The notes under the pieces are model-generated. The model ran no database searches. It had not been told where the DNA came from and saw only the letters and a list, made by a program, of their open reading frames with translations. This document shows positions 3,674-40,081 of a stretch of 40,121 nucleotides of DNA, piece after piece. Positions within the stretch are counted from its first letter, which is position 1, and the number at the start of each line of letters is the position of its first letter. The stretch spans positions 1-40,121 of the forward strand of contig CAZGNX010000002.1 in assembly GCA_964527065.1 (NCBI GenBank), written 5' to 3'. A program made the translations under genes and the position numbers. The stretch comes from an uncultured Pseudomonadales bacterium. Its GTDB lineage: Bacteria > Patescibacteriota > Microgenomatia > UBA1400 > UBA12108.

Positions 3674-4057
3674 TTACTTAAGTTCGACTGTTGCTCCGGC
3701 TTCTTCAAGTTTCTTTTTCGCGGATTCAGCGTCTTCTTTTTTGGCTCCCTCAAGGAGAGTCTTGGGGGCGGCTTCGACTAGATCCTTGGCTTCTTTAAGG
3801 CCGAGGTTCTGGTTGATTTCGCGTACGGCCTTGATGACGCCGATTTTGTTGGCACCACCTGAGGTCAAGACAACATCGTAGGCATCTTGTTCCTCGGCGG
3901 GTGCGGCAGCAGCACCAGCTGCAGCAGGGGCGGCAGCCATCATGGGTGCAGCGGCACTCACGCCAAATTTTTCCTCAAGAGCTTTGACTAGGTCAGCGAC
4001 CTCGAGAACGGATAATTTTTCTACTTGCTCTACTAGAGCTTTGACGGTATCGGACAT
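3674..4057 (-). CDS. rplL: 50S ribosomal protein L7/L12
   Basis: The sequence [59 protein letters not shown] is L7/L12. GGAGG lies upstream of the ATG at 4057, so the 21-nt N-terminal extension in the ORF track is rejected. Confidence 0.95.
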
Positions 4058-4088
4058 GTGTCCTCCTTTTTTGATCAATTATAACTAA

Positions 4089-4643
4089 TTAAGCTTGTGT
4101 AACCTGCTTTCCTGCCTGCGCAGGTAGGTTACTAACTGCCGAGAGGGCGTAGACGAGGTTGCGCATGGGGGCACTCAAGACGGAGACCAGGTTGCGCGCG
4201 GGATTGGAGAGTGTGCCCAAGAGTTTGGCGATGAGCTCTGCCTTGGTAGGAAGGGTAGCAAGTTGCATAACTAAAGCCCTCGATAATACTTCTTTGCCGA
4301 GTATACCCGCCTTTACCTTGGGTAATTCTTTTTCATTTCCCTTCGCAAACTCGACCATCGCTTTAAGCGGGGCGACGGCATCACCATCCGCAAACAAAGT
4401 GAGGTTGGGGCCTGTGAGCTCTGATTCTAATGAGTCGGCGTCAAACCCTTTGTTGGTCATCGCGATTTTGAGCAAATTGTTTTTAGCGACCGTGACACTA
4501 CCACCGGTCTCGCGGATGAGATCGCGCAGTTTGACCTGGTCTTTGACGGTGAGTCCCTGGTAGTCTGCCAGGAAGATAGCCTGGGCGGTCGCGAGCTTGG
4601 TCTCGAGCTCAGCTACTCCGGTGATGTTTTTTTGATTTGGCAT
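4089..4643 (-). CDS. rplJ: 50S ribosomal protein L10
   Basis: L10-like sequence (ADYQGLTVKDQVKLRDLIRE..VAKNNL) located directly upstream of rplL. AGGAG precedes the ATG at 4643. Confidence 0.93.
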   Translation of the reverse strand: MPNQKNITGVAELETKLATAQAIFLADYQGLTVKDQVKLRDLIRETGGSVTVAKNNLLKIAMTNKGFDADSLESELTGPNLTLFADGDAVAPLKAMVEFAKGNEKELPKVKAGILGKEVLSRALVMQLATLPTKAELIAKLLGTLSNPARNLVSVLSAPMRNLVYALSAVSNLPAQAGKQVTQA

Positions 4644-4764
4644 AGGATGCTCCTGATACAAAAATAGCTGTCCGCGAGACAGCTAAGTGCTACAGCTTGT
4701 AGCAAATTGCCTTCGACAGGGCTTATTGATTGCCTGTTGTCTAGAGGATAATGGTAGTATAGCA
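4644..4764 (-). promoter_or_regulatory. rplJL promoter (TGCTATACT at 4756-4764) plus an L10-leader-like 5' UTR with a terminator-type hairpin
   Basis: The minus strand reads AGCTGTC-TCGCG-GACAGCT (4666-4684) followed by ATTTTT, immediately before the rplJ Shine-Dalgarno. Further small hairpins lie upstream. The position matches known L10 autoregulatory leaders. Confidence 0.45.
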
Positions 4765-4776
4765 GAGATATGGTCT

Positions 4777-5007
4777 TTAGGCAACAACGCTCATGGAAGT
4801 TGGCGATTTGATCTTGAGTTTACCCTCGATCTTTTTGACGCGTTGCTCGAGTTTGGTGACCTTGGTTTTGGTGAGGGTGTGCTCCTGATCTGAACGAGTG
4901 ACAATCTTGAGAACCTTATCTATTTTATTTTCGACACGGTCGATGCGCTTATCTACGATTCTTTCTACAATTTCTTCGAGAATAACTTTGTCATGATCGG
5001 AAAGCAT
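4777..5007 (-). CDS. Small (76 aa) coiled-coil protein, paralog of 6917-7156
   Basis: MLSDHDKVILEEIVERIVDKRIDRVENKIDKVLKIVTRSDQEHTLTKTKVTKLEQRVKKIEGKLKIKSPTSMSVVA. It shares the pattern KIxxVxKILKxxTRxDQEHTxTxxKVxKxxxRxxKxExKLKIKSP with the second copy. Both copies also share the upstream TGCTTAAAT-N6-ATG. Confidence 0.7.
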   Translation of the reverse strand: MLSDHDKVILEEIVERIVDKRIDRVENKIDKVLKIVTRSDQEHTLTKTKVTKLEQRVKKIEGKLKIKSPTSMSVVA

Positions 5008-5058
5008 GATTGTATTTAAGCAACAAATTAAATATGTTGCAAGCGAGATACGTAGTGA

Positions 5059-5119
5059 CCCAGTGGGGTCAATTGTACCCCACCTGGGCAATGCCACCAT
5101 CTGGTGGATGGTGGCATTG
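5059..5119 (-). terminator. Two consecutive strong hairpins downstream of the lipoprotein gene
   Basis: The first is CCCAGTGGGGT/ACCCCACCTGGG (5059-5088, one bulge). The second is a perfect 13-bp stem CAATGCCACCATC-TGGTG-GATGGTGGCATTG (5089-5119). There is no clear U tract. Confidence 0.5.
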
Positions 5120-5137
5120 TGGCCCGTGGTGCGCGTG

Positions 5138-5689
5138 TTACTCGCGGCACTTTTTGAGTTCGCCAAAGTCTGAGGCAGGAGGAAGGCAGAGCTTGCCTTC
5201 ATTCCATAGCGTTACAACTTCGGCGAGGTTGACCACTTCCGTGGGGTTTCCAGGGAGGTAGTTGCCCAAAATTGACAAACCGCAGCCGTCAAATTTTATT
5301 CCCACCGCATCGGGGGGGATTTCGGTGTGCTGTATATCACCGTCGCAGGTGTCGAACCAGAAGATGATCTGGGTATCGACTGGAATAAGATATCCATCCT
5401 CCGACTTTTGGACCTCCATCCCGAAAATAGTTCCATCGGCAGTAACCATCAACAATGACACTTCTGGAGACGCGATGTTGTTGAGGTCGAGGTCGACCGT
5501 GATCTCATACGGTTCAGAAGTTGAGGTAGGGGGGAGGAAGTTGATCTCCGATGTCACGACGATTGGGACTGGGGTGTCAGTTGGTGGGGGTGTGAAAGTG
5601 GGCACAGGTGCCGACGCGGGCGCGCAGGCGGCGAGGAGCAACGCTCCAGCCAAAATCAAAAACGCAATCTTTTTCATCTTTTTCTCCAT
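5138..5689 (-). CDS. Lipoprotein of unknown function, inserted between rplA and rplJ
   Basis: It has a signal peptide with a lipobox (MKKIAFLILAGALLLAAC) followed by a Pro/Thr-rich linker. The alternative start at 5677 (MKKIAF) is preceded by GGAGA. Confidence 0.8.
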   Translation of the reverse strand: MEKKMKKIAFLILAGALLLAACAPASAPVPTFTPPPTDTPVPIVVTSEINFLPPTSTSEPYEITVDLDLNNIASPEVSLLMVTADGTIFGMEVQKSEDGYLIPVDTQIIFWFDTCDGDIQHTEIPPDAVGIKFDGCGLSILGNYLPGNPTEVVNLAEVVTLWNEGKLCLPPASDFGELKKCRE

Positions 5690-10179: not shown

Positions 10180-10265
10180 TGGTGCTGAGGATAGGATTCG
10201 AACCTATGTAGCCGTAAGGCAGCAGATTTACAGTCTGCCCTCGTTGACCGCTTGAGTACCTCAGC
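10180..10265 (-). tRNA. tRNA-Tyr (anticodon GUA), long variable arm, CCA encoded
   Basis: The cloverleaf was folded by hand: GCTGAGG/CCTCAGC acceptor, GCAGA-CTGTAAA-TCTGC anticodon arm, ATAGG-TTCGAAT-CCTAT T arm, 86 nt. Confidence 0.9.
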
Positions 10266-10880: not shown

Positions 10881-10953
10881 AGCCAAGATCGGGGATCGAA
10901 CCCGAGACCTTCCCCTTACCATGGGGATGCTCTACCAACTGAGCTATCTTGGC
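10881..10953 (-). tRNA. tRNA-Thr (anticodon GGU)
   Basis: The cloverleaf was folded by hand: GCCAAGA/TCTTGGC acceptor, GCTC-AGTTGGTA-GAGC D arm, TCCCC-ATGGTAA-GGGGA anticodon arm, TCGGG-TTCGATC-CCCGA T arm, 73 nt. No CCA is encoded. Confidence 0.9.
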
Positions 10954-12726: not shown

Positions 12727-12799
12727 AGCCACCTCAGGGGATCGAACCCAGGACCTACGCTTTACAAAAGCGCCGCTCTACCAACTGAGCTAAGGTGGC
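12727..12799 (-). tRNA. tRNA-Thr (anticodon UGU)
   Basis: Folded by hand: GCCACCT/AGGTGGC acceptor, GCTC-AGTTGGTA-GAGC D arm, GCGCT-TTTGTAA-AGCGT anticodon arm, and a T arm with one U-U mismatch. 73 nt. Its 3' end lies 2 nt from the convergent PBP stop. Confidence 0.85.
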
Positions 12800-16693: not shown

Positions 16694-16764
16694 CAGGTCT
16701 GGAAGGAATCGAACCTTCGTTAGAGGTTTTGGAGACCTCTGTCCTACCGCTGAACGACAGACCT
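16694..16764 (-). tRNA. tRNA-Trp (anticodon CCA)
   Basis: Folded by hand: AGGTCTG/CAGACCT acceptor, GAGGT-CTCCAAA-ACCTC anticodon arm, GAAGG-TTCGATT-CCTTC T arm, 71 nt. Confidence 0.9.
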
Positions 16765-18737: not shown

Positions 18738-20879
18738 ATGCCCAAGCTGACGACACTCCTCTTGACGATCCCACGCGAAACCGAGATAACGCCGGAGTCC
18801 TCAGCTACCTTTCTCTCTACCTTCCCCGCCATTTTGCACAAGTCGCTCTTTGAGGTCTGGATCAAGGGAGAGGAGAGACCTACGGTTGCGCTTGAGGTAG
18901 GGGTGTGGGAACAGAAGATCCGTTTCCTCCTGACCTGCTCAACCCACCTCACTCAGTTCGTTATTTCTCAAGTTCAGTCGACCTATCCGCTCGCTATGAT
19001 TGTGCCGATTGAGGATCAGCTCCCCAAACTTGCATCGTCATTGGTAGTTGGTGAGCTCAAAATGCAACTAGCTAGTTTTTATCCATTTAAAACCTGGGCT
19101 GAGTTTCGCGATACCGATCCCATCAACTCGTATCTCTCCGTCATGTCCAAAGCCGAGCCAGCCGAGGTGATGTATCTCTCATTGGTGATTACAGCCCCTT
19201 CCGATACGTGGCAGAGTGAGGGGCGCAAAGCACTGGATCTTGGCCGTAGTATGGGTAGTACCAAAACCCAGTCGGGATATGTAGAGAAGAGGGGTACACT
19301 CCCCAACGCCAGGGGAATTGAGGAGAAGATAGGACAAGGAGGATTCTCGCTCACTGCCAGGGTCGCGGTTTCCAAACCAGCTAGGTTGAGTGAACTAAGC
19401 GCCGTGTTTGGCGTCTTTGCTCGTCCTGACGGCAATAGTTGGAGTCTGTCGCGGTCGCTCTTCCTAGAGAGTGCGCGGCGCAAGCTCATAGAGCGTGTGA
19501 GTGTGCAAAAGCGAGTGGTTTCGATTTCAGAGCTTGCCACCCTGTGGCACCTGCCCTCGGACAAAGTACGCATCCCGATGATCCTGTGGGGGCAAAATGT
19601 CTTCTCCGAGCCACCCGAGAACCTGCCGATTGCGGAGGGGGCGAGTGAGGAGGAGAAGGCGACAATTAATTTTTTTGGGCGGACGACCCACAAGAATCGC
19701 GATCTGATCTTTGGAATCAAGGATATAGACCGCAGACGCCACCTCTGGGCGATAGGGAAGACCGGGACGGGCAAATCGACGCTGATTGCCAACATGGCGA
19801 TCGACGATATGAAAAAGGGACGGGGAGTGGCGATCATTGACCCCCACGGTGACCTTTGTGATACCATCTTGGATTTTGTCCCTGCGAGCCGCCTCAACGA
19901 TGTGATCTACTTTAATCCCAATGATCGTGACCGGCCAGTGCGGCTCAATGTCCTCGAGGTCAAGAACCCGGCCCAGCGGGAGCTCATAGTCTCTGGGATT
20001 GTGGCCATCTTTAACAAGCTCTACGGTCATTCGTGGGGGCCGCGGCTCGAGTACATTTTGCGTAATAGCTTGCTGGCACTCTCGGAGATCCCCGGGGCGA
20101 CGCTTGTTGATATCCCGCGCTTGCTCACCGACCGGGTGTATCGACAAGGTGCAATAGCCAAGCTCTCCGACCCGGTGATCAAACGATATTTTGAGAATGA
20201 GTTTGACAGGATGCCAGAGAAAATGCTTCAGGAATCGATCGCGCCGATTCTCAACAAAGTGGGGCAGTTTGTCAGTTCGCCGCTTATCCGCGCGATTATC
20301 GAGCGCCCCACAAGTAGCATCGATATGGAGGAGATCATGAACGACGGCAAAATCTTGATTGCCAATCTCTCACAAGGCAAGATCGGGGAGGACAACGCCG
20401 CGCTCATTGGGGCAATGCTCATCACCAAGTTCCAGCTCGCGGCCATGAACAGGGTCGATCGTGCAGAGTCCGCGCGGCGCGACTTTTACCTCTATGTCGA
20501 CGAGTTCCAGAATTTTGCCACCTCGAGTTTTATCAAGATCCTCTCGGAGGCCCGCAAGTACAAACTCAATTTGACCATGGCCAACCAGTACATGGCTCAG
20601 ATCCCGCTCGAGGTACAAAAGGCGATCCTGGGCAATGCCGGCAGCATCATCTCCTTTACCATTGGAGCAGATGATGCCAGGATCATTATGAAAGAGTTTG
20701 GGGAGGTATTCACCGACAGGGATCTGGTCAACCTCGAGAACTACCAGATCGCGGTACGGCTGATGGTGGACTCGATGTCAGGACGCGCCTTTGTGGCCAG
20801 GACTCTGCCCCTGCCTGCCAGCCGCAACCAGAATCGGGACAAAGTGATACGCGTATCGAGAGAGCGGTGGGGGCGCTAG
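18738..20879 (+). CDS. VirD4/TraD/TrwB-like (type IV coupling protein-type, FtsK/HerA superfamily) ATPase without an N-terminal TM anchor
   Basis: 713 aa. Walker A is GKTGTGKST, followed by IIDPHGDL. Walker B is FYLYVDEFQNF. ARKYKLNLTMANQY is typical of TraD/VirD4-type proteins. The ~330-aa N-terminal domain has no recognisable family. Confidence 0.8.
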   Translation: MPKLTTLLLTIPRETEITPESSATFLSTFPAILHKSLFEVWIKGEERPTVALEVGVWEQKIRFLLTCSTHLTQFVISQVQSTYPLAMIVPIEDQLPKLASSLVVGELKMQLASFYPFKTWAEFRDTDPINSYLSVMSKAEPAEVMYLSLVITAPSDTWQSEGRKALDLGRSMGSTKTQSGYVEKRGTLPNARGIEEKIGQGGFSLTARVAVSKPARLSELSAVFGVFARPDGNSWSLSRSLFLESARRKLIERVSVQKRVVSISELATLWHLPSDKVRIPMILWGQNVFSEPPENLPIAEGASEEEKATINFFGRTTHKNRDLIFGIKDIDRRRHLWAIGKTGTGKSTLIANMAIDDMKKGRGVAIIDPHGDLCDTILDFVPASRLNDVIYFNPNDRDRPVRLNVLEVKNPAQRELIVSGIVAIFNKLYGHSWGPRLEYILRNSLLALSEIPGATLVDIPRLLTDRVYRQGAIAKLSDPVIKRYFENEFDRMPEKMLQESIAPILNKVGQFVSSPLIRAIIERPTSSIDMEEIMNDGKILIANLSQGKIGEDNAALIGAMLITKFQLAAMNRVDRAESARRDFYLYVDEFQNFATSSFIKILSEARKYKLNLTMANQYMAQIPLEVQKAILGNAGSIISFTIGADDARIIMKEFGEVFTDRDLVNLENYQIAVRLMVDSMSGRAFVARTLPLPASRNQNRDKVIRVSRERWGR

Positions 20880-21769
20880 AGGTAATACTGGGCAAAGTCG
20901 GAGTAGGAGATAGGTTTGGGTTTGCCAGAGATGAGTACATCGGGGATCAAACTCCTGGAGTTTGATATGAGGGCAAGGCGGAGTTCGCCTTTTTTACTTG
21001 GGGCTAGTGTCCAGACCCGCTCCCAGCTAGTGAGGCCGCGGATGAGGTCGTGGAGGATCTCTCCTCTTGGATTGTGGGTGAGGCGCAGGCGCAGGAGGGG
21101 GTTGGTGGTTTCGCTGGGGTCCACGCGGGTGTTGGAGAGGAGTTTTTGTAGCACGCTCCACTCAATATAGCCAGACTCAGAGTTGAGGCGGCTGGTGAAG
21201 ATGAGGGGACTGGCGGTGAGGTGAGGATTGCAAGGTAGGGAACCTTGTAAAAAATCGAGGAAGAGTTGGGCGCCTTTGGCAAAGAGACGGTGGAGGAGGA
21301 TGGGGGCGGTGTCGGCGCTCTGGATCGGCTCGCTGACTTGACCGACAATCTCGCCGTTGTCAATACCCTCGCTGATACGGTGGAGTGTGATGCCTGTGAC
21401 GCTATCGCCAAGGGCGATGGCGTAGGGGACGGGGGCGACATTGCGATACTGTGGCAAGAGCGACGGGTGGAGGTTGTAGAGATGGCCATCAAAGCGGTCG
21501 ATAATCTCTGTGGGGAGGAGGTGATTCCACGAGGCACAGAGACCAATAGTATTTTTGTTCAATATTACTGGAATAGATGGATAATAGGATACTTTTAGAT
21601 TATGCGTTTTGGCTAGTTTTTCGACCTCGGTGGGCACGAGAGTTTCGCTATTTTTTGCGGGTTTTCCTCGGTCGGTCACGACGGAGATTTGAGCCAATTG
21701 TTGAGAAGCAATCAGGAGATTGAGGACGGTTGCACTGTAGCGATCGGAGCCAAAAAAGATGAGTTGCAT
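20876..21769 (-). CDS. fmt: Methionyl-tRNA formyltransferase
   Basis: MQLIFFGS..NLHPSLLPQYRNVAPVPYAIALGD..TGITLHRISEGIDNGEIV is the formyltransferase core. Confidence 0.9.
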   Translation of the reverse strand: MQLIFFGSDRYSATVLNLLIASQQLAQISVVTDRGKPAKNSETLVPTEVEKLAKTHNLKVSYYPSIPVILNKNTIGLCASWNHLLPTEIIDRFDGHLYNLHPSLLPQYRNVAPVPYAIALGDSVTGITLHRISEGIDNGEIVGQVSEPIQSADTAPILLHRLFAKGAQLFLDFLQGSLPCNPHLTASPLIFTSRLNSESGYIEWSVLQKLLSNTRVDPSETTNPLLRLRLTHNPRGEILHDLIRGLTSWERVWTLAPSKKGELRLALISNSRSLIPDVLISGKPKPISYSDFAQYYL

Positions 21770-26611: not shown

Positions 26612-27691
26612 ATGTTGAACGCACTTTTGGGTATGTTAAGCCAGGATATGGGGATTGATTTGGGGACGGCCAACACGCTAGTCTTTGTCAAAGGTAAAGG
26701 AATCTTGATTCGTGAGCCCAGCTACATTGCGCGACACAAACGCTCGGGCGCGATTATTGCCATCGGGTCAGAAGCCAAGCTAATGGCGGGCAAAACTCCC
26801 CAGTCGATAGAGGCAGTACGCCCACTGCGAGACGGTGTAATTGCGGACTATGACGGCGCGGAGGCAATGTTGCACTACTATATCAAACAAGTACATGAAA
26901 ATTCTTCTTGGATTTCCAAGCTGCCGCGACCCAAAGTAATTATTGGTATACCTTCTGGGGTAACTGAGGTAGAACGACGTGCGGTATCGGAAGCGGCTAT
27001 CCAGGCGGGAGCACGGGAAGCATACCTTGTGGAGGAGCCAATGGCGGCGGCAATAGGCGCAGGACTACCGATTCATGAACCGCGAGGACAAATGATCATA
27101 GATATTGGGGGTGGCACGACAGAAATTGCGATATTATCACTTGGGGGCATTGTGCTCAACAAATCCTTGCGGATTGCAGGGGACGAATTGACAGAGTCGA
27201 TCATTCACTTTGCACGTGTGAAATACGGCTTGCTCCTAGGGGATGCTAGCGCAGAGGAGATCAAGATCCAGATAGGGAGTGCGGTGGCTCCCGCAGATCC
27301 TTCAACAGGCTCAGGACAGGCTAAGAAAGAGTCGCAAATAGTTGTGCGAGGGCGCGATCTAGGCACTGGACTACCCAAATCAATGAAGTTTAGTGCAACA
27401 GAGATAAGGGAAGCACTTGCCCCCACACTACAATCGATAGTGAGGGCCGCCATGGACGTACTGGAGGAGACTCCACCAGAGCTTGTTTCTGACATTATCC
27501 AACACGGGATCACTATGGCAGGTGGCGGGTCGCTGATTCGCGGGCTCGACAAGATGGTGTCGGAGTCGACCAGTATGCCTGTTTGGGTGGCGGATGATCC
27601 AATGGACTGCGTGGTGAGGGGATGTGGCAAACTTTTGACCGACGAAAAGTTGTTGAAGAAAGTGAAGGTGGGTGCAAGGCTAAGGTATTAA
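26612..27691 (+). CDS. mreB: Rod-shape-determining protein MreB
   Basis: DMGIDLGTANTLVF, PLRDGVIADY, EEPMAAAIGAG, IDIGGGTTEIA and GGGSLIRGLD are actin-fold MreB motifs. Confidence 0.95.
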   Translation: MLNALLGMLSQDMGIDLGTANTLVFVKGKGILIREPSYIARHKRSGAIIAIGSEAKLMAGKTPQSIEAVRPLRDGVIADYDGAEAMLHYYIKQVHENSSWISKLPRPKVIIGIPSGVTEVERRAVSEAAIQAGAREAYLVEEPMAAAIGAGLPIHEPRGQMIIDIGGGTTEIAILSLGGIVLNKSLRIAGDELTESIIHFARVKYGLLLGDASAEEIKIQIGSAVAPADPSTGSGQAKKESQIVVRGRDLGTGLPKSMKFSATEIREALAPTLQSIVRAAMDVLEETPPELVSDIIQHGITMAGGGSLIRGLDKMVSESTSMPVWVADDPMDCVVRGCGKLLTDEKLLKKVKVGARLRY

Positions 27692-27711
27692 ACCATTACA
27701 CGATTACACAA

Positions 27712-28800
27712 ATGAAAACATTTCAAAAATTACAGAAAAACCCTCGGTTGTGGCAGCGATACTGGGTGCGGGAGCGTGTGATTGATGCTATCAGGGCATA
27801 CTTTAAGCGTGAGGGGTTCCACGAGGTGGAGGTACCGCTCTTGCTGCCGACACCTTCAACGGAGCCGTTTCTGGAGGTATTTAAGACTGAGCTCAAGGAC
27901 GATCAAGGGAAACGGTGGGATGCATTTTTGCCATCCTCGCCGGAATTTGCTCTCAAGAAACTTTTGTCGGCAGGGAGTGGTAGCGTCTTTACCATCACCA
28001 AGTCATTTCGTAATGGGGAGGGTCGCAGTAGCCGTCATAATCCCGAGTTTAGTATCCTCGAGTGGTACCGAACGCCAGGGGATTATATGGACATCGCGCG
28101 CGACTTTGAACGACTGATGGTCTACATTTCCTACAAGGTGAGACCTTGTAGGTTGCAAGTTGAATCAGAACCTACAAGGTCTCACCTTGTAGGTCAAGAC
28201 CAGACCTTAGTGTATCAAGGTGAAACGTATACACTCAAGGCACCGTGGGAAAAGATCAGCGTGGCGGAGGCGTTCCAAAAATATGCCAAGATTGATACTG
28301 AGACTATGCTGGATGAGCAACAGCTGAAGATCGCGGGCAAGAAAAAGGGATACCAGGTGAGTGATAAGACTACCTGGGAAGAAATCTGGAATCAAATTTT
28401 GGCTAATGAGATTGAGCCCAATCTAGGAACAAAAGGGCCGACTATTCTCTACGACTACCCAATCGCTCAGGCCGCACTGGCGAAGAAGGCAAAGGATCCG
28501 CGCTTTGCACAGCGCTTGGAAGTATTTATGGCAGGGCTTGAGCTGGGTAACTGTTTCTCCGAGCTCACCGACTGGAGGGAGCAGGAGGCGCGATGTCACG
28601 GCGACCTCGCTGAGCGCAAGCGGCTGGGTAAGACGGAATACCCGATGGACACTGACTTCATCGAGGCACTCAAGCTCGGTATGCCAGAGACGGGGGGAAT
28701 CGCGGTGGGGGTCGACCGACTGGTGGCGCTCTTTGCCGACGTCCCCGATATCGCGGATGTGCTGTTTTTCCCGATTAGCGACCTGTTTGACAGGGCGTAG
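27712..28800 (+). CDS. epmA: EF-P lysine ligase EpmA (PoxA/GenX, LysRS catalytic-domain paralog)
   Basis: Class II aaRS motifs are present (FHEVEVPLL, NPEFSILEWY, GIAVGVDRLV) and there is no anticodon-binding domain. The gene lies next to efp. It carries an in-frame palindromic insertion (see the repeat feature at 28130-28193). Confidence 0.8.
   Translation: MKTFQKLQKNPRLWQRYWVRERVIDAIRAYFKREGFHEVEVPLLLPTPSTEPFLEVFKTELKDDQGKRWDAFLPSSPEFALKKLLSAGSGSVFTITKSFRNGEGRSSRHNPEFSILEWYRTPGDYMDIARDFERLMVYISYKVRPCRLQVESEPTRSHLVGQDQTLVYQGETYTLKAPWEKISVAEAFQKYAKIDTETMLDEQQLKIAGKKKGYQVSDKTTWEEIWNQILANEIEPNLGTKGPTILYDYPIAQAALAKKAKDPRFAQRLEVFMAGLELGNCFSELTDWREQEARCHGDLAERKRLGKTEYPMDTDFIEALKLGMPETGGIAVGVDRLVALFADVPDIADVLFFPISDLFDRA
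28130..28193. repeat. Composite palindromic element: two copies of a 23-nt hairpin unit in opposite orientation, inside the epmA CDS
   Basis: CCTACAAGG-TGAGA-CCTTGTAGG (28130-28152) and its exact reverse complement CCTACAAGG-TCTCA-CCTTGTAGG (28171-28193) are separated by 18 nt. A related copy lies at 35634-35664. Confidence 0.85.
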
Positions 28801-29087: not shown

Positions 29088-29654
29088 ATGTCGTCTATCA
29101 AAGCAAATCAGCTTAAGAGTGGGATGTTTATCCTCTACAAGGATCAGCCGTGCGCGGTCGTTAAGTGCGAGTTCTATTTCCCCGGCAAGGGGAGCGCGTT
29201 TGCCCGCACCAAGATCAAGAACGTCAAGACTGGAAACGTCTACGAATATACCTTTAAATCGAGCGATATGGTCGAGTCGGTGGACGTGGACACAATCGAG
29301 TTGCAGTATCTCTACCAGGACGGGAACATCTACTACTTTATGGACCCACGCACTTTTGACCAGCACGAGATTGTGCGCGAGTTGTTTGAGGGCAAAGAAG
29401 TGTACCTACTTCCGGAAATGAAGATGTTTGTCAACTTGTATGAAGGAGCGGTGATTGGGGTAAGGTTCCCCCCCAAAGTCACGGTCAAAGTCACGGAGGC
29501 GCAGGAGGCGAGTGCGGGTAATACGGTTAATGCTCCCAAGAAACCTGTCACGATCGAGACTGGAGTGGAGGTAATGGCACCGCTGTTTGTGAAGCCAGGG
29601 GAGATGATTATTGTCGATACTGAGACAGGGGAGTACGTGAGCAGGGCTAATTGA
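29088..29654 (+). CDS. efp: Elongation factor P
   Basis: The sequence LKSGMFILYKDQPCAVVKCEFYFPGKGSAFARTKIKNVKTG carries the modifiable Lys in the PGKG loop. Confidence 0.95.
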   Translation: MSSIKANQLKSGMFILYKDQPCAVVKCEFYFPGKGSAFARTKIKNVKTGNVYEYTFKSSDMVESVDVDTIELQYLYQDGNIYYFMDPRTFDQHEIVRELFEGKEVYLLPEMKMFVNLYEGAVIGVRFPPKVTVKVTEAQEASAGNTVNAPKKPVTIETGVEVMAPLFVKPGEMIIVDTETGEYVSRAN

Positions 29655-34206: not shown

Positions 34207-34353
34207 ATGTTCATGATTGAAGAAATGAAACAAAAGATGTCTCCTCGTGATATACGCATGAGGGGCTTGCATCCTGACGATGGTGGTGGTTTGGATGTCG
34301 ATATTCCAAGTCAGCCACCAACCTCAGGCAGTGACGGCTCGGAATGGGATTAA
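34207..34353 (+). CDS. Possible 48-aa acidic peptide
   Basis: GGAGG lies 8 nt before the ATG. The product is MFMIEEMKQKMSPRDIRMRGLHPDDGGGLDVDIPSQPPTSGSDGSEWD. A strong terminator follows 6 nt after the stop. This ORF is absent from the ORF track. Confidence 0.45.
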   Translation: MFMIEEMKQKMSPRDIRMRGLHPDDGGGLDVDIPSQPPTSGSDGSEWD

Positions 34354-34359
34354 CGTCCA

Positions 34360-34402
34360 ACACCCTCCTCGATATGCAGAAACATCGAGGAGGGTGTTTC
34401 TG
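34360..34402 (+). terminator. Rho-independent terminator
   Basis: A perfect 14-bp stem ACACCCTCCTCGAT / ATCGAGGAGGGTGT with a 10-nt loop is followed by TTCTGTATT. Confidence 0.75.
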
Positions 34403-34414
34403 TATTATAGACTC

Positions 34415-35002
34415 ATGGACAAGGATCTCTATTTGTTGGGGAATCAGGCATGTTTGGAGATGAAGCGGATCTGTGTGGTGGGAACACGGACGATGTCAGC
34501 ATATGGACGGGAGATGACTGAGATCTTTGTAAAGCAATTGGTGAGTGAGAGGTGGTGTGTTGTATCTGGGTTGGCGCGCGGCGTAGATATGGTGGCTCAC
34601 GAGACTGCGATGACTCATGGTGGCAAGACTATGGCAGTGCTCGCACACGGAGTGGATCTCTGTTATCCGCCAGAACACGCAAACCTCAAACAACGAATTC
34701 TAGAGACTGGTGGATTATTGGTGAGTCATTACCCAGAGGGAGTGAGGCCCACTCCCGACAAGTTCCGTGCACGAGATGTCCTGATGGTCAACCTCGCACA
34801 AGCGGTACTGGTGATGGAAGCTCCTCAGCGGAGTGGAGTCAAGATCACGGTGAGTGCGGCGGCTGAAATGGGCAAGAACGTCTACGTTGTACCAGGTCCC
34901 GTTAGTCAGGCGAGCTACTACGGCTCTGTTGAGATCATCCGCAACGGCGGGATTCCCGTGTATAGTCCGCAGGATATGCTAGAGCAGTTGGATCATCTAT
35001 AG
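34415..35002 (+). CDS. dprA: DNA-processing protein DprA (Rossmann-fold core only)
   Basis: VVGTRTMSAYG..VSGLARGVDMVAHETAM..GGKTMAVLAHGVDLCYPPEH..RSGVKIT are DprA core motifs. The ATG at 34415 is chosen because the upstream part of the track ORF crosses the terminator. Confidence 0.85.
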   Translation: MDKDLYLLGNQACLEMKRICVVGTRTMSAYGREMTEIFVKQLVSERWCVVSGLARGVDMVAHETAMTHGGKTMAVLAHGVDLCYPPEHANLKQRILETGGLLVSHYPEGVRPTPDKFRARDVLMVNLAQAVLVMEAPQRSGVKITVSAAAEMGKNVYVVPGPVSQASYYGSVEIIRNGGIPVYSPQDMLEQLDHL

Positions 35003-35094: not shown

Positions 35095-35655
35095 ATGAAA
35101 TGCATTGTAGGGCTCGGTAACCCCGGAGACAAGTACGCTCATAACCGGCATAACGTCGGGTTTATGGTGATGGATCGGTTACTGGCCAAAATAATCAAGG
35201 ACCAAACATCAAACATAAGACACTTTTCAAATAACAAAAAATTCAATGCTGAAATAATGATTGAGCAAAATTATATTGTGGTCAAACCCAGCACTTTTAT
35301 GAATGAAAGTGGCCAAGCGGTCGCGGCAATAACCCAATTTTACAAAATAAAAAATGATGATCTCTATATAGTCCACGACGATTTGGACATAACCCTTGGT
35401 AATTACAAGATCCAGCTTGCCAAGGGGCCACTGATCCACTACGGCGTCAATTCTGTAGAAGAAAAGCTAGGCAGTAGTGACTTTTGGCGGGTGCGAGTGG
35501 GGGTGGAGAATAGAGAAGTTCGGGGCAACAAAGGAATTCCTGGCGAAGTGTATAGCCTACAGAATTTTGATGAGCAAGAACAAAAAATACTGGATGGTGT
35601 AATAGAGTCGATCTGTCAGGAAATGACTGTAGCCCTACAAGGTGAGACCTCGTAG
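35095..35655 (+). CDS. pth: Peptidyl-tRNA hydrolase
   Basis: The sequence IVGLGNPGDKYAHNRHNVGF..KPSTFMNESGQAV..IVHDDLD contains the Pth motifs. Confidence 0.95.
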   Translation: MKCIVGLGNPGDKYAHNRHNVGFMVMDRLLAKIIKDQTSNIRHFSNNKKFNAEIMIEQNYIVVKPSTFMNESGQAVAAITQFYKIKNDDLYIVHDDLDITLGNYKIQLAKGPLIHYGVNSVEEKLGSSDFWRVRVGVENREVRGNKGIPGEVYSLQNFDEQEQKILDGVIESICQEMTVALQGETS

Positions 35656-35664
35656 GTTACAAGT
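35634..35664 (+). repeat. Third copy of the palindromic hairpin unit, overlapping the pth C-terminus and stop
   Basis: CCTACAAGGTGAGACCTCGTAGGTTACAAGT differs from 28130-28160 at two positions. The pth stop TAG (35653-35655) lies inside the 3' arm. Confidence 0.75.
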
Positions 35665-35684: not shown

Positions 35685-37712
35685 ATGGATTTGGTAATTG
35701 TCGAGTCTCCTACCAAGGCAAAAACGCTCGCGAAGTTCCTGGGATCCTCTTACAAAATAGAGGCCTCCATGGGGCATGTGCGGGACCTGCCTGAGTCCGG
35801 TGGAGGACTGGCTATAGACCTAGAACACGACTTTGCACCAGAGTACCATGTGCTAGAGAAGAAGAAAGCGCGGGTGGCAGAACTGAAGAAGCTGGCAAAA
35901 GGAGTAGGAGTGATCTACCTGGCGACAGATCCGGACCGCGAGGGAGAAGCAATCTCCTACCACGTGCAGTATCTGTTACAGGATAACAAGAAACAGGATA
36001 ATAGTGATCAGTCTAGATTTCGGCGCGTCACATTCCACGAGATTACCAAGAGCGCAATAGAAGCGGCGCTGCAGCACCCAGGGTCGGTGAATATGGAACT
36101 CGTGAATGCACAGCAAGCACGGCGGGTGCTCGACCGACTAGTGGGCTATACGCTCTCGCCCGTGTTGTGGAAGAAAGTGCGCAGAGGACTCTCGGCAGGG
36201 CGCGTGCAGTCGGTGGCCGTGCGTCTGATAGTTGACAAAGAACGGGAGATCAAAGCGTTTGTACCCATTGAATACTGGGAGATATATGTGGATTTAGAGA
36301 CGAATGTACAAATGCATGAACGCACGAGTGAAGCATTGCGGGTGCAACTGGTCAGAATTGACGGCAAGCCTGCAGACATAAGTAGCGGAGAGACAGCGGG
36401 AGGAGTCATTACGGACTTGGAAAAGGCTACCTACACTGTGTCGGACGTCACGCAAGTTGAGCAGCACAGTTCGCCGTATCCGCCCTTTACCACCTCGCTC
36501 CTCCAGAGAGCTGGGAGCAACGTATTTTCGTGGAGTGCCAAGATGACCATGCAGATCGCTCAGTCACTCTATGAACAAGGCCTCATTACCTATCACCGCA
36601 CAGACTCTTTTAACCTCGCGACAGAAGCGGTTGCCATGGCACGGGGATACATAGAAAAAACATACGGCAAGGAGTATCTCCCAGAACAAGTGAGGGTATA
36701 TAAAACCAAATCTGCAAGCGCTCAGGAGGCTCACGAGGCTATCCGTCCAACTGAGGTGTCGAGAGTGGGAGCCGATCTCATTGCGGCTGGGATGACGAGC
36801 CGACATCAGAAGTTGTACGATCTGATCCGGACGCGATTCTTGCAGTGTCAAATGATGGATGCGCGGTTTGATAAGACAACAATATTTGTGGAAGCACGCA
36901 CGAATGCAGGAATGCTCGAATATACTCTGAAGGCTGATGGCAAGCGGATGATTTTTGATGGGTACCTCAAGCTGGGTAAAAGCGCTGAGGACGTATTCTT
37001 GCCCAATATCCAGTCGGGAGAGACGCTTTCTTTAATCAAAGTGGATCCAGTGCAAAAGTTTACGAGCCCTCCAGGCAGATATAGCGAAGCAGGGCTTATT
37101 AAAGAGCTCGAGAAGCGGGGGATCGGGCGCCCCAGTACTTATGCGGCAATCATCACCACGATCCAGGATCGCGGGTATGTGATCAAGGAAGAGAAGAGTT
37201 TCCGTCCTACCGCCATTGGTGAGGCGGTCGTCGACTTTTTGGTCACTAACTTTGGTAATGTGTTTGCATACGAATTTACGGCTCAAATGGAAGGGGATCT
37301 AGACCTGATTGCCGAAGGCAAAAAAGAATGGGTGCCAACTGTGCGGGCTTTTTGGGAGCCACTATCTAAGCAAGTGAAGGTGGTAGAGGAGACGGGGGAG
37401 CGCGTCAAGGTGGCGGTGGAGAGCACGGGGAAGATGTGTCCAACCTGCAATGAAGGGGAGGTGGTCGTGCGCACTGGCAAGTTTGGCAAATTCCTCTCAT
37501 GCTCGCGCTATCCTGATTGTACGTATACCCAGCCATATGTGGAGTATGTGGCGGGCGTGGTGTGTCCGACCGATGGGGGGAGAGTAAAGATAATGAAGAG
37601 TAGGAAGGGGCACAAGTTCTATGGGTGTGAGAACTATCCCAATTGTAAGTGGGCCGCATGGAAACTACCTAAGCCGGAAGTGGTCGTCGCCGACTTGCAA
37701 CAGAGAAGTTGA
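35685..37712 (+). CDS. topA: DNA topoisomerase I
   Basis: It has a TOPRIM N-terminus (LVIVESPTKAKTL), the active-site region ITYHRTDS, and C-terminal CxxC zinc ribbons. Confidence 0.95.
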   Translation: MDLVIVESPTKAKTLAKFLGSSYKIEASMGHVRDLPESGGGLAIDLEHDFAPEYHVLEKKKARVAELKKLAKGVGVIYLATDPDREGEAISYHVQYLLQDNKKQDNSDQSRFRRVTFHEITKSAIEAALQHPGSVNMELVNAQQARRVLDRLVGYTLSPVLWKKVRRGLSAGRVQSVAVRLIVDKEREIKAFVPIEYWEIYVDLETNVQMHERTSEALRVQLVRIDGKPADISSGETAGGVITDLEKATYTVSDVTQVEQHSSPYPPFTTSLLQRAGSNVFSWSAKMTMQIAQSLYEQGLITYHRTDSFNLATEAVAMARGYIEKTYGKEYLPEQVRVYKTKSASAQEAHEAIRPTEVSRVGADLIAAGMTSRHQKLYDLIRTRFLQCQMMDARFDKTTIFVEARTNAGMLEYTLKADGKRMIFDGYLKLGKSAEDVFLPNIQSGETLSLIKVDPVQKFTSPPGRYSEAGLIKELEKRGIGRPSTYAAIITTIQDRGYVIKEEKSFRPTAIGEAVVDFLVTNFGNVFAYEFTAQMEGDLDLIAEGKKEWVPTVRAFWEPLSKQVKVVEETGERVKVAVESTGKMCPTCNEGEVVVRTGKFGKFLSCSRYPDCTYTQPYVEYVAGVVCPTDGGRVKIMKSRKGHKFYGCENYPNCKWAAWKLPKPEVVVADLQQRS

Positions 37713-37903
37713 GCAGACGCATTTTTCCTTTGTGAGGCTCGCGTCATGAAAAAATTACTTGTCTGTTACGCGCCTTTGTAATTTTTTTTGATCAGCTCGA
37801 CCCTACATGCGTCAAAATGGTCTTACTCAATTGTTCTTTGTTGAGTTCTGTATCACTTTGTTGTATTGGCATGTGGGGTAAAAATCGGGTAGGATGGCTA
37901 GGC

Positions 37904-40081
37904 ATGAAAGTACTCAAACGCAACGAGCGCGAGCAGGAGCTAGACGCAAATAAGATTGCGGACTCGATATTCCTCGCGGCACAAGACGTCGGGGGGACTG
38001 ACCGCAAACTGGCAGAAAAGATCGCCCAAGAGGTTGTGTTGCGAATCAAAAAGCAGTACGGCAGGATGAAGAGCGTCTCGACAGCCGAAATCGGTGATAT
38101 GGTAGAGCGGATCCTCTTGGAGAGAACTCACTACAAAACGGCCAAAGCCTATATCCTCAATCGCGAGAAAAAGCGACAAGTGGAGTCCGCTAAGCGAGCA
38201 CTAGGAGTGCATGATGATGTGGGACTCTCATACAATGCACTCGTTGTAGCCAAGGAGAAATATTTGCGTAGAGATCAGGACGGCGAGGTTGCTGAGACAG
38301 TCTCTCAAATGTTTGGACGCACTGCCAAATTCCTTGCCTCGGCAGAGCGCAAGAGAGAGCAGAAAAAGTGGGAGGCAGCATTTAAATCTGTTATGAGTGA
38401 ACAGCGATTTATCCCCGGAGGGCGCACCCTCGCCAATTCAGGGACCGCTAATAATCAACTTGCCAACTGTTTTGTGATGCCGATGCCTGACAATATTGAA
38501 GGGATTTTTGAAAGTCTCAAAGAAAGCTCGATCCTCAAGAAATACGGGGGAGGGGTAGGCTTTACCTTTGGCCACATTAGACCAAAAGGTGACAAGGTCT
38601 CAACTACTTCGGGGGCGGCGGCAGGACCAGTGGCTCTGATGCAGCTCGTGAACGATGCCTCAGATATCTACTTGCAGGCTGGTAAGCGTAGAAGCGGCAA
38701 TATGGTAACGCTCCCGATCACGCACCCCGATATTATCGAGTTTATCCACTGCAAAGAGTCTGGCTTAAACTATCCTCACATCAATTTTTCTATTGCCATA
38801 ACTAACAAGTTCGTCGAAGCTGTCAAACAGAACAAGGAGTGGGAGCTCATTAATCCGCGCACAGGTCAAGTAGTTAGCAAGATATCTGCCCGTGGACTCA
38901 TGGAAGAGGCGGCGCGCATGGCCTGGAAAAACGGGGATCCAGGCCTGATCTTCATCGACGAGATCGAGAAATATAATCCCACCCCTCACGTAGGGCCTCT
39001 TGAAACGGTCAATCTGTGCGGAGAGCAGCCGCTATTGTCGTACGAGGCTTGTAATCTGGGATCTGTGAACCTCGCAGTTCATGTGAGCGGGGTTAATGGT
39101 AGTGCCAAAGTGGACTGGGTCAAACTGGAGGAGACGGTGCGACTCGGTGTACGTATGCTTGATGATGTTGTCACTGTTTGTGAATACCCACTCAAGCGGG
39201 TAGCCGACACCGTCCACGGCAACCGCAAGATAGGGCTCGGGGTGATGGGCTGGGCAGATATGCTAGTCAAACTGCATATTGCCTACAACTCCCCCAAGGC
39301 TCTCAAACTGGCCGAAGAAGTGATGGCATTTGTCCAAAAGATTGGACACGATGAGTCGGCAAAGCTGGGCAAACTGAAAGGTAGTTTCCCCAACTTCAAA
39401 GGATCGCTGTGGCAAAAGAGAGGGTACAAACAATTCCGCAATGCGACGGTCACGACCATTGCCCCCACCGGCACTATCTCGATGATGGCGGGCTCTAGCT
39501 CTGGGATTGAGCCACACTTTGCGCTGGCATATTTTCGCAAATCGATGGGGCAATACGATCTGCCAGAAGTTAATGTCGATTTGGTAAGGGCTATCAAGCA
39601 CGTCAACGGACTATACTCAAGTGAGCTCATGGATGAAATAGCTAGGACGGGGAGTATCCAGAAGCTCGAGAAAATCCCAAGCTCTATCCGTGAGATTTTT
39701 GTGACAGCCATGGATATCAAACCCGAGACGCACGTCCAGATGCTGGCCGCTTTTCAGAAATATACGGACAATGCGGTGTCTAAGACGATCAATCTGCCTG
39801 CCGAGGCTACGGTGGAGGACGTAATGAGTGTGTATATGATGGCGGCGGAACTCAAGTGTAAGGGAATTACAGTATATAGAGATAAGAGTAGGGGAGAGCA
39901 GGTGCTGAACGTGGGATCTTCGGCTCTTCAGAAAGTCAGACAATCAGAAAACTCAGTTAAACAGAGAATCAGTAAACCTGAGAATCAGAGTCTAGATCTC
40001 TGTCCTGAATGTGGGAGCAAGTTGGCCTTAGAAGAGGGGTGTAAGAAGTGTTATAGCTGTGGGTATAGTGTGTGTGAGTGA
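37904..40081 (+). CDS. nrdJ: Ribonucleotide reductase, class II (adenosylcobalamin-dependent) type, with an N-terminal ATP-cone and a C-terminal zinc ribbon
   Basis: The ATP-cone is VLKRNEREQELDANKI. The thiyl-radical loop is VNLCGEQPL, with CNLGSVNL nearby. The C-terminus is CPECGS..CKKCYSCG. No beta-subunit gene is adjacent. The class assignment is from memory. Confidence 0.8.
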   Translation: MKVLKRNEREQELDANKIADSIFLAAQDVGGTDRKLAEKIAQEVVLRIKKQYGRMKSVSTAEIGDMVERILLERTHYKTAKAYILNREKKRQVESAKRALGVHDDVGLSYNALVVAKEKYLRRDQDGEVAETVSQMFGRTAKFLASAERKREQKKWEAAFKSVMSEQRFIPGGRTLANSGTANNQLANCFVMPMPDNIEGIFESLKESSILKKYGGGVGFTFGHIRPKGDKVSTTSGAAAGPVALMQLVNDASDIYLQAGKRRSGNMVTLPITHPDIIEFIHCKESGLNYPHINFSIAITNKFVEAVKQNKEWELINPRTGQVVSKISARGLMEEAARMAWKNGDPGLIFIDEIEKYNPTPHVGPLETVNLCGEQPLLSYEACNLGSVNLAVHVSGVNGSAKVDWVKLEETVRLGVRMLDDVVTVCEYPLKRVADTVHGNRKIGLGVMGWADMLVKLHIAYNSPKALKLAEEVMAFVQKIGHDESAKLGKLKGSFPNFKGSLWQKRGYKQFRNATVTTIAPTGTISMMAGSSSGIEPHFALAYFRKSMGQYDLPEVNVDLVRAIKHVNGLYSSELMDEIARTGSIQKLEKIPSSIREIFVTAMDIKPETHVQMLAAFQKYTDNAVSKTINLPAEATVEDVMSVYMMAAELKCKGITVYRDKSRGEQVLNVGSSALQKVRQSENSVKQRISKPENQSLDLCPECGSKLALEEGCKKCYSCGYSVCE

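Follow-up and report, generated by a model that had tools for sequence, protein, structure and literature searches.

A 64-nt palindrome read in frame within epmA as a probable REP doublet of a Patescibacteria hairpin family

The contig analyzed here (CAZGNX010000002.1 of assembly GCA_964527065.1; its 40,121 nt are referred to below as the window) carries epmA, the gene for the elongation factor P (EF-P) lysine aminoacylase, which is preceded by mreB and holds within its coding sequence a 64-nt palindrome composed of two inverted copies of a 23-nt hairpin unit. We describe this palindrome, the protein loop that it encodes, and the family of hairpins to which it belongs, which resembles the repetitive extragenic palindromes (REPs) of other bacteria. 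An earlier reading of the DNA letters, made without database searches (hereafter, the sequence-only reading), had already named the gene, and this assignment is borne out: the product scores 319.9 bits against the EpmA/GenX equivalog model TIGR00462 (cutoff 286.9), matches the Pfam family tRNA-synt_2, and has its closest solved structures in E. coli GenX (3A5Z, 3A5Y and 3G1Z). Close EpmA homologues bear the names Microgenomates group, Collierbacteria and Woesebacteria, i.e., names of the Patescibacteria, or candidate phyla radiation (CPR), and the organism is assigned to this group on that basis. The open reading frame (ORF) 27622-28800 runs uninterrupted across the palindrome, as the same reading had noticed, with the translation ..YISYKVRPCRLQVESEPTRSHLVGQDQTLVYQGETY...

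The repeat finder identified perfect arms at 28130-28154 and 28169-28193, each 25 nt long, with a complementarity of 100% and 14 nt intervening. Each arm is also a hairpin in its own right, with a stem of 10 bp and a loop of 3 nt; the left-arm unit recurs, exactly reverse-complemented, in the right arm, and the loop is accordingly GAG on the left and CTC on the right. The description given in the sequence-only reading, a 9-bp stem with a 5-nt loop followed after an 18-nt spacer by its reverse complement, is equivalent to ours, except that the pairing between the arms extends 2 nt further inwards. A search of the window for the 23-mer, with up to three mismatches allowed, found matches at 28130, 28171 and, with one mismatch, at 35634, compared to a chance expectation of 0 (100 dinucleotide-preserving shuffles). 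The segment 28115-28210 (96 nt) has a predicted folding energy of -53.8 kcal/mol as RNA (z = -9.8) and of -31.5 kcal/mol as DNA (z = -9.7). At gathering thresholds, Rfam models matched only four tRNAs across the window; at permissive thresholds, the palindrome matched eukaryotic miRNA-precursor models far below their cutoffs, and these matches were rejected as generic hairpin noise. Intron, intein, CRISPR-like array and terminator readings were dropped as well: the frame remains open, the length of 64 nt is not divisible by 3, only two units are present, and the element is not followed by a T-run.

Foldback chimeras can yield palindromes, and the window is a metagenomic contig; thus, a false palindrome could result from a hairpin-induced mis-join during assembly, an error that the sequence-only reading had itself considered. 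The probability of such an artefact appears close to nil. Four public runs, each from a different study (activated sludge, wastewater and bioreactor sludge), yielded independently assembled contigs with zero differences at the epmA locus; the X1 and X2 contigs extend over the whole of 27900-28450, and the contigs from X3 and X5 include the part with the palindrome. The palindrome is not taken to be an artefact because the contigs of all four runs match without differences; in addition, the same architecture is found in independent orthologues from other assemblies, and the reading frame is preserved. No excision joints were seen at the palindrome locus among the assembled contigs of the public runs.

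Table 1. Features of the window, by position (frames a, b and c of the hairpin unit are described in the text)
Feature	Position	Strand	Remarks
epmA (genX), EF-P lysine aminoacylase, 362 aa from likely start MKTFQKL	27712..28800	+	class II synthetase motifs intact
Insert-spanning stretches of the predicted EpmA peptide			VRPCRLQVESEPTR, SHLVGQDQTLVYQGETYTLK
Composite palindrome, 64 nt, REPIN-like doublet	28130..28193	.	25-bp perfect long hairpin or cruciform; EpmA codons S140-G161
Left REP-like unit	28130..28152	+	CCTACAAGGT-GAG-ACCTTGTAGG; read in frame b as (S)YKVRPCR
Spacer, 18 nt	28153..28170	+	TTGCAAGTTGAATCAGAA; encodes LQVESE; kept in orthologues L125-L130
Right REP-like unit	28171..28193	+	reverse complement of left unit; read in frame a as PTRSHLVG
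efp, gene of the EpmA substrate	29088..29654	+	PGKG loop lysine K34; shows that the EF-P pathway is present
pth, peptidyl-tRNA hydrolase	35095..35655	+	last about 7 codons (ALQGETS) and stop from hairpin unit
Third unit	35634..35656	+	CCTACAAGGTGAGACCTCGTAGG, 1 mismatch; frame c; TAG at 35653-35655 is the pth stop; 29 nt upstream of topA
TrwB/VirD4-like coupling ATPase	18738..20879		weak Pfam matches
DprA	34280..35002		
tRNA gene	10183..10265		
tRNA gene	10881..10953		
tRNA gene	12727..12799		
tRNA gene	16694..16764		

The insert site is a length-variable loop located after the helix that follows motif 2. Residues 136-179 of the window EpmA align to only 10 residues of E. coli GenX. In an AlphaFold2 model of medium quality (36 orthologues used; mean predicted local distance difference test score, pLDDT, of 67), residues 145-162 are unstructured, with pLDDT <50, between a helix (125-143) and a small beta-hairpin (165-174); mapping onto a structural model thus places the insertion in a stretch of low confidence, consistent with the surface loop anticipated from the letters. 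The class II motifs are invariant in the EpmA alignment. The insert is probably translated, as a stretch of about 21 residues that the model predicts to be disordered, and the EpmA loop that receives it is permissive.

The same site was compared in the 120 closest EpmA proteins, which are 73-82% identical. The stretch from DFExLM to YQGKEY has a length spread of 27 residues across these orthologues. The loop has 30 residues in the window and 9-16 in short orthologues; thus, the addition of about 20 residues holds up. In about a third of the orthologues (36/120), the loop has at most 16 residues and no insert, and the palindrome element is present in 15-19 of the 120. Because the same element occurs in many orthologues, the insert is not private to this genome, contrary to the lineage-specificity that the sequence-only reading had proposed to confirm by alignment. 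The spacer peptide LQ[VA][EG] is found in 12 of the 15 orthologues that keep both arms. The doublet of L125-L130 is as in the window, with the spacer TTGCAAGTTGAATCAGAA or close variants, and with outer half-stems that have decayed (left, CCCAAAAGG; right, CCTTGAAGG). The arms of L002 match those of the window but enclose another spacer, L131 derives from the element by an internal deletion that keeps the frame, and in L132 the site is empty.

The epmA loop is a hotspot, which in other orthologues holds other hairpin families, tandem arrays with a period of ~8 nt, or nothing. For example, L010 carries CCTGCAGGGCCAGGCCCTGCAGG and a partial inverted copy of it, with a 23-nt layout like that of the window unit and compensatory stem changes; the loop of L017 holds AGTTCCGAAC..GTTCGGAACT, and that of L214 a doublet of the family CCTTCCGGGAGACTCCCGGAAGG. 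The ~8-nt-period arrays are found in the epmA loop of L003, L004, L006, L007, L008, L011 and L016. Examples of their positions are L004 10421-10458, L006 1410-1433 and L011 448-472. Arrays of this period (TCAGAAAA, TCAGCAAT, TCCAGTAA and AATTCTCA, 3-8 copies) form a second class of dispersed repeats; in the window, arrays of this type are located at 39928-39989, 36898-36921 and 27687-27709, one of them inside the ORF 37817-40081. It should be noted that a repeat period not divisible by 3 is odd for arrays within coding sequence.

The type of insert is unlinked to the similarity of the remaining protein: the identity within types equals that between types (~0.82), and there are pairs that are 94-96% identical outside the loop yet have different inserts (P0013 vs P0063, P0086 vs P0095). 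Gains and losses could not be mapped on a neighbour-joining tree of the 120 loop-masked EpmA sequences because of its star-like shape; pairwise identities were used instead. L215 and L216 are 100% identical over most of epmA and 33-58% identical from about nt 380 to 560, flanking codons included. Low-identity blocks between these two sequences were seen at ~380-560 and ~781-840, with 33-73% identity within the blocks, and one of them covers the loop cassette along with its flanks. Because the diverged block includes the flanks, it bears the signature of allelic recombination and not of a clean insertion; such mosaic epmA alleles therefore indicate homologous recombination between diverged Microgenomates lineages. 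L213 and L214 show a sharp difference at the element ends. Judging from the sequence comparison, repeat insertion probably creates cassettes in this loop, and homologous recombination probably transfers them from one allele to another.

The hairpin unit is not confined to epmA. Among species-representative genomes, the exact 23-mer has one occurrence, in the P-type ATPase gene of a Microgenomates metagenome-assembled genome (MAG; L001), where it is read as EPTRSHLVG. The relaxed family pattern CCTACRAGGT-NNN-ACCTYGTAGG matched 30 loci in the species-representative genomes, nearly all of them Patescibacteria of several classes, with a maximum of 7 contigs with matches per MAG, and 76 loci in metagenome contigs. 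Deduplication left 80 contexts, almost all on Patescibacteria contigs. In 53 of them there is no long ORF; a further 19 fall within long ORFs that extend for 40 residues or more to either side, and the other 8 are close to the end of an ORF. In other words, about a quarter of the family copies are intragenic, in frame in real genes, and the majority are outside long ORFs; the further copies expected in the sequence-only reading exist, many of them in frame in other genes. The hosts confirmed by Pfam are UppS, TruB, a WecG-family transferase, P-type ATPase, Wzy_C (O-antigen ligase-like), LTD (lamin-tail-domain) and Y1_Tnp. The match in L114, which falls on a motif native to GalE (PYEVAPRRSGD), was discarded as due to chance. 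In runs X1-X3, a different contig, i.e., a second locus, has a 32-nt copy of 28130-28161. The copy at 35634, which the sequence-only reading had listed as a third, does exist; however, it is not in the body of a protein but forms the last pth codons and their TAG. This unit and the epmA unit have a common 3' tail, GGTTRCAAGT.

The three frames of the unit differ in what they encode: frame a gives PTRxxLVG, frame b gives xYKVxPCR, and frame c always ends with TAG. The unit is tolerated in genes because frames a and b can be read through, whereas frame c supplies a stop. A loop that creates TGA, TAA or TAG closes frame a, as the GAG loop does; therefore, the left epmA unit is readable only in frame b. 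The 41-nt offset shifts the right unit to frame a, and thus exactly one frame of the doublet is open, the one that is used. Clusters and inverted doublets are frequent in the family (doublets, e.g., in L063 and L065), and the sub-families differ by the loop, with CCA/TGG the commonest, and by a compensatory A-T/G-C stem pair. In one sub-family, the CCA-loop hairpin forms the center of a conserved element of greater length, ..cttaattcttacagcctacaa (hairpin) ttaaaaatcaaaatc(c/t)aacat.., found at L026 1319, L034 1805, L047 979, L067 268, L089 1526 and L094 1503; this suggests a larger composite, similar to a MITE (a miniature transposable element with inverted repeats), built around the REP unit.

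Across seven orthologous copies of the epmA doublet, the arms co-vary: the loops are either GAG/CTC or CCG/CGG, and one stem pair is either T-A or C-G. In four pairs both partners change, and the observed score was reached by 5 of 500 shuffles, a count that arises without structure in 5-25% of cases; the covariation, drawn from seven related sequences, is therefore suggestive. Together with the very stable fold, the perfection of the window copy next to diverging flanking codons, and the persistence of the element in 15-19 of 120 orthologues, this pattern could be expected if the long hairpin were a functional cis-element of epmA maintained by selection, such as a site where translation pauses, a site for RNase III or mRNA stability, or a cruciform bound by protein. 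We consider this explanation unlikely. Copies of the unit also occur in intergenic DNA and in genes unrelated to epmA, most orthologues show decay of the outer half-stems, the covariation comes from a sample of just seven relatives, and Rfam yielded no match beyond the hairpin noise. Moreover, since many orthologue loops are insert-free and others are filled with unrelated hairpin families or 8-nt arrays, no single structure is required for EpmA.

A link to mobility is provided by Y1 transposase genes (HUH type, IS200-like and RAYT-like, RAYT being the REP-associated tyrosine transposase) in related contigs. In L019, a gene of 240 aa (3987-4709, minus strand) is inserted between mreB and epmA; its product matches Pfam Y1_Tnp above the cutoff (E 6e-11) and has the motifs YHIxNRG and MPNHFH (HUH), and the gene is flanked by hairpins TTTACAGGGATGATCCCTGTAAA, with one more copy inside, in frame. 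The transposases of L055 (4806-5462, minus strand) and L040 (6212-6901) are also above the Y1_Tnp threshold. The L055 gene has CCTACAAGGTCCAACCTTGTAGG, which is the window unit with another loop, at both ends, and two in-frame copies inside; the same arrangement is found in L062, L094 and L107, and L019, L040 and 48 further loci show it for sister families. Relatives of these transposases amount to at least 576 genes in species genomes, mostly Patescibacteria. At the 48 best loci, perfect hairpins reach a density of 1.15/kb near the gene (<=300 nt), five times that elsewhere (0.23/kb), and matching hairpin pairs are located ~35-80 nt upstream and 1-60 nt downstream of the Y1 gene, with a sequence that changes with the lineage. 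The upstream hairpin of L133, CCTACAAGGAGACTCCTTGTAGG, is close to the window unit. Thus, an arrangement of gene plus lineage-specific hairpins recurs across Patescibacteria.

The hairpin that flanks a Y1 gene often recurs in frame within the coding sequence of that gene, at two favored positions near +180 and +470 nt. Carriers of such in-gene hairpins are L055, L019, L040, L166, L165, L157, L139, L147 and L144, and the second position falls in the NP..LV..Y.SSY region of the transposase. It is possible that these internal hairpins serve self-regulation or self-targeting. A PDB sequence search with the L055 transposase returned no meaningful match.

The diversity of the epmA loop admits another origin for the palindrome, a local one, in which inverted duplication or templated repair in a hypervariable, slippage- and recombination-prone loop produced it without any transposition, and the likeness to repeats elsewhere is convergent. 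The many unrelated repeat types of the hotspot, including the 8-nt tandem arrays, are in line with this origin, as are the near-identical alleles whose differences comprise entire cassettes and the diverged flanks around them, a sign of recombination. A target-site duplication is not seen at the palindrome, which also fits; it should be noted that transposition of the IS200/IS605 type by Y1 enzymes leaves no target duplication. A convergent likeness is hard to reconcile with the identical 23-mer in the P-type ATPase of another MAG, the window's copy at pth, which has one mismatch and shares the 3' tail, the 32-nt copy at another locus in the same samples, and the association of the hairpin family with the flanks of Y1 transposase genes. 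A purely local origin is accordingly judged to be very unlikely.

These features are best compared to those of known systems. REPs tagged with GTAG are linked to REP-associated tyrosine transposases (RAYTs), and intragenic REPs occur in several species (Di Nocera et al. 2013, PMC3733652). Dimers or groups that encode 20-30 residues make up more than half of the intragenic REP inserts, REP termini often donate a TAG stop, and tRNA synthetases and TruB are among the targets (PMC3733652). Two inverted REPs with a short variable spacer, which form one long hairpin, are known as a REPIN (PMC8049555), and a RAYT gene flanked by REPs is known as a REPtron (PMC3733652). The family described here is similar to GTAG REPs in several respects: (i) the window unit is a palindrome in the 20-40 nt range, forms a stem-loop, and contains GTAG, here within the stem; (ii) sub-families differ by compensatory stem changes and by the loop; (iii) the copies seen appear to be mostly intergenic, often directly after ORFs, and can donate TAG stops; and (iv) a minority are in frame in genes, often as dimers of 20-30 aa, with tRNA synthetases and TruB among the hosts. 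The epmA doublet resembles a REPIN in its inverted units, with 25-nt arms, a 14-nt loop and a spacer that varies (L002 vs the window), and the units that flank a Y1 HUH transposase gene in related contigs resemble a REPtron. We therefore favor, with a probability of about 0.8, the interpretation that the 64-nt palindrome is a REP doublet, i.e., two inverted 23-nt REP-like hairpins in REPIN architecture, from a Patescibacteria family, located in frame in epmA.

Several observations weigh against this interpretation. The NCBIfam model REP_Tyr_transpos is matched by the L055, L019 and L040 transposases below its cutoff, at 38-42 bits vs 80 (E 1e-9 to 1e-10), and no Y1/RAYT-like gene was found in the 40-kb window by tblastn with the L019 transposase as the query. 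In the window, GTAG/CTAC is base-paired within the stem (..TTGTAGG), whereas the classical GTAG is unpaired and outside the stem (PMC3733652). Relatives show GCAG, GTAA or GAAG at the GTAG position. Few copies were seen, namely 3 units in 40 kb and 7 contigs with matches in the best MAG, whereas classical REP families number in hundreds of copies; the low copy number seen and an intragenic share of about a quarter set the family apart from classical REPs. The evidence for translation of the insert consists of the open frame and its conservation, from which translation is inferred. Finally, pairing in the window is 25/25 while orthologue half-stems have decayed; therefore, passive decay alone is insufficient, and recent conversion or selection is needed. 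Further differences from the known systems are the host group, Patescibacteria, and the associated transposases, which are distant from the curated RAYT model and have their own hairpins within the coding sequence at two recurrent positions. We found no description of a REP or RAYT in Patescibacteria/CPR in the searchable literature.

The sequence-only reading had likened the palindrome to the Rickettsia palindromic elements (RPEs), which are about 100-150 bp long, Rickettsia-specific, and often fused in frame (Ogata et al., summarised in PMC10969869); two short members, RPE-4 and RPE-6, have been assigned to the CGTC REP super-family, not to GTAG (PMC3733652). With regard to behaviour, the likeness is real: in both cases, a selfish palindromic repeat is present in frame in housekeeping genes (here epmA, uppS, truB and a P-type ATPase), where it would add a peptide at a surface site, and is tolerated, so that the protein is not destroyed. 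It does not extend to the family, which is of the REP/RAYT kind. RPEs encode a conserved longer peptide, to which the window element has no likeness, and have no known transposase. The window element measures 64 nt, is made of 23-nt units, lacks sequence likeness, and has a Microgenomates-type host. RPE identity was thus rejected on account of size, host and sequence, and of relatives that flank Y1/RAYT-like genes. MITEs such as Correia, ERIC and BOX (PMC10969869) offer another comparison: like them, the palindrome is a short non-autonomous element with terminal inverted repeats and an occasional in-frame ORF fusion; unlike them, it has no target-site duplication, no parent insertion sequence of the DDE type, arms that are themselves hairpins, and a link to a Y1 transposase.

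Under the interpretation of the palindrome as a REP doublet, the hairpin family would be mobilised, now or formerly, in trans as single-stranded hairpin DNA by a Y1 transposase, by analogy to IS200/IS605 and to the E. coli TnpA-REP. The epmA copy would be a near-neutral translated passenger; its persistence presumably reflects selection against all copies except those placed in frame in a permissive loop. The doublet is likely to be old, inherited by many orthologues, and moved between alleles via homologous recombination, and its arms may be kept alike through conversion within the element or through weak selection for the hairpin. A broader proposal is that a REP/Y1 system of Patescibacteria routinely writes short peptides into protein loops, with the epmA loop as a landing pad, and thereby contributes to a lineage-wide diversification of loops in ultra-small genomes. 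In such a case, hairpin cassettes of different families, and 8-nt arrays, would enter the loop, undergo conversion and pass between near-identical alleles at a pace exceeding that at which the remainder of epmA evolves. This proposal is speculative, and we rate it as rather doubtful.

These results suggest that REP/REPIN-type selfish hairpins and RAYT-like transposases are active, or were recently, in the reduced genomes of Patescibacteria, and that a sizeable fraction of the copies, as judged from reading frames, probably end up translated in housekeeping proteins. No new mechanism is revealed, given that in-frame REP dimers and RPEs are already known; what is new is the bacterial group. The importance would increase if the loop hotspot and the self-tagged transposases reflect a lineage-wide mechanism. 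Since loop peptides such as RPCR, TRSHLVG, PAGPGPAG and RESPG..LPEG are derived from repeats, caution is needed in the annotation, alignment and structure prediction of CPR proteins. In addition, the epmA loop represents a natural series of insert-bearing and insert-free alleles, in which the cost or contribution of a passenger can be gauged.

Other hairpins were seen in the window and in related contigs. The methionyl-tRNA formyltransferase gene fmt of the window (20876-21769, minus strand) has an in-frame hairpin, ATCAAACTCCTGGAGTTTGAT, at 20946-20966. The fmt gene of L017 (1023-1985) has three hairpins, including CCTTCCGGGAGACTCCCGGAAGG, which is identical in L007 (15964), and a further case is L004 3391-4175. 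Because fmt hairpins are present in several genomes, housekeeping genes besides epmA are hit at orthologous places. A perfect hairpin with a 13-bp stem, CAATGCCACCATC-TGGTG-GATGGTGGCATTG, at 5089-5119, is unrelated to the REP unit; it lies in or beside the ORFs 4777-5202 and 5138-5689 (minus strand), both without Pfam matches. Lastly, many MAGs with these Microgenomates/Patescibacteria-type genes (L003-L009, L019-L021, L135-L137 and others) are labelled 'uncultured Pseudomonadales' or 'Gammaproteobacteria', and these labels look wrong.

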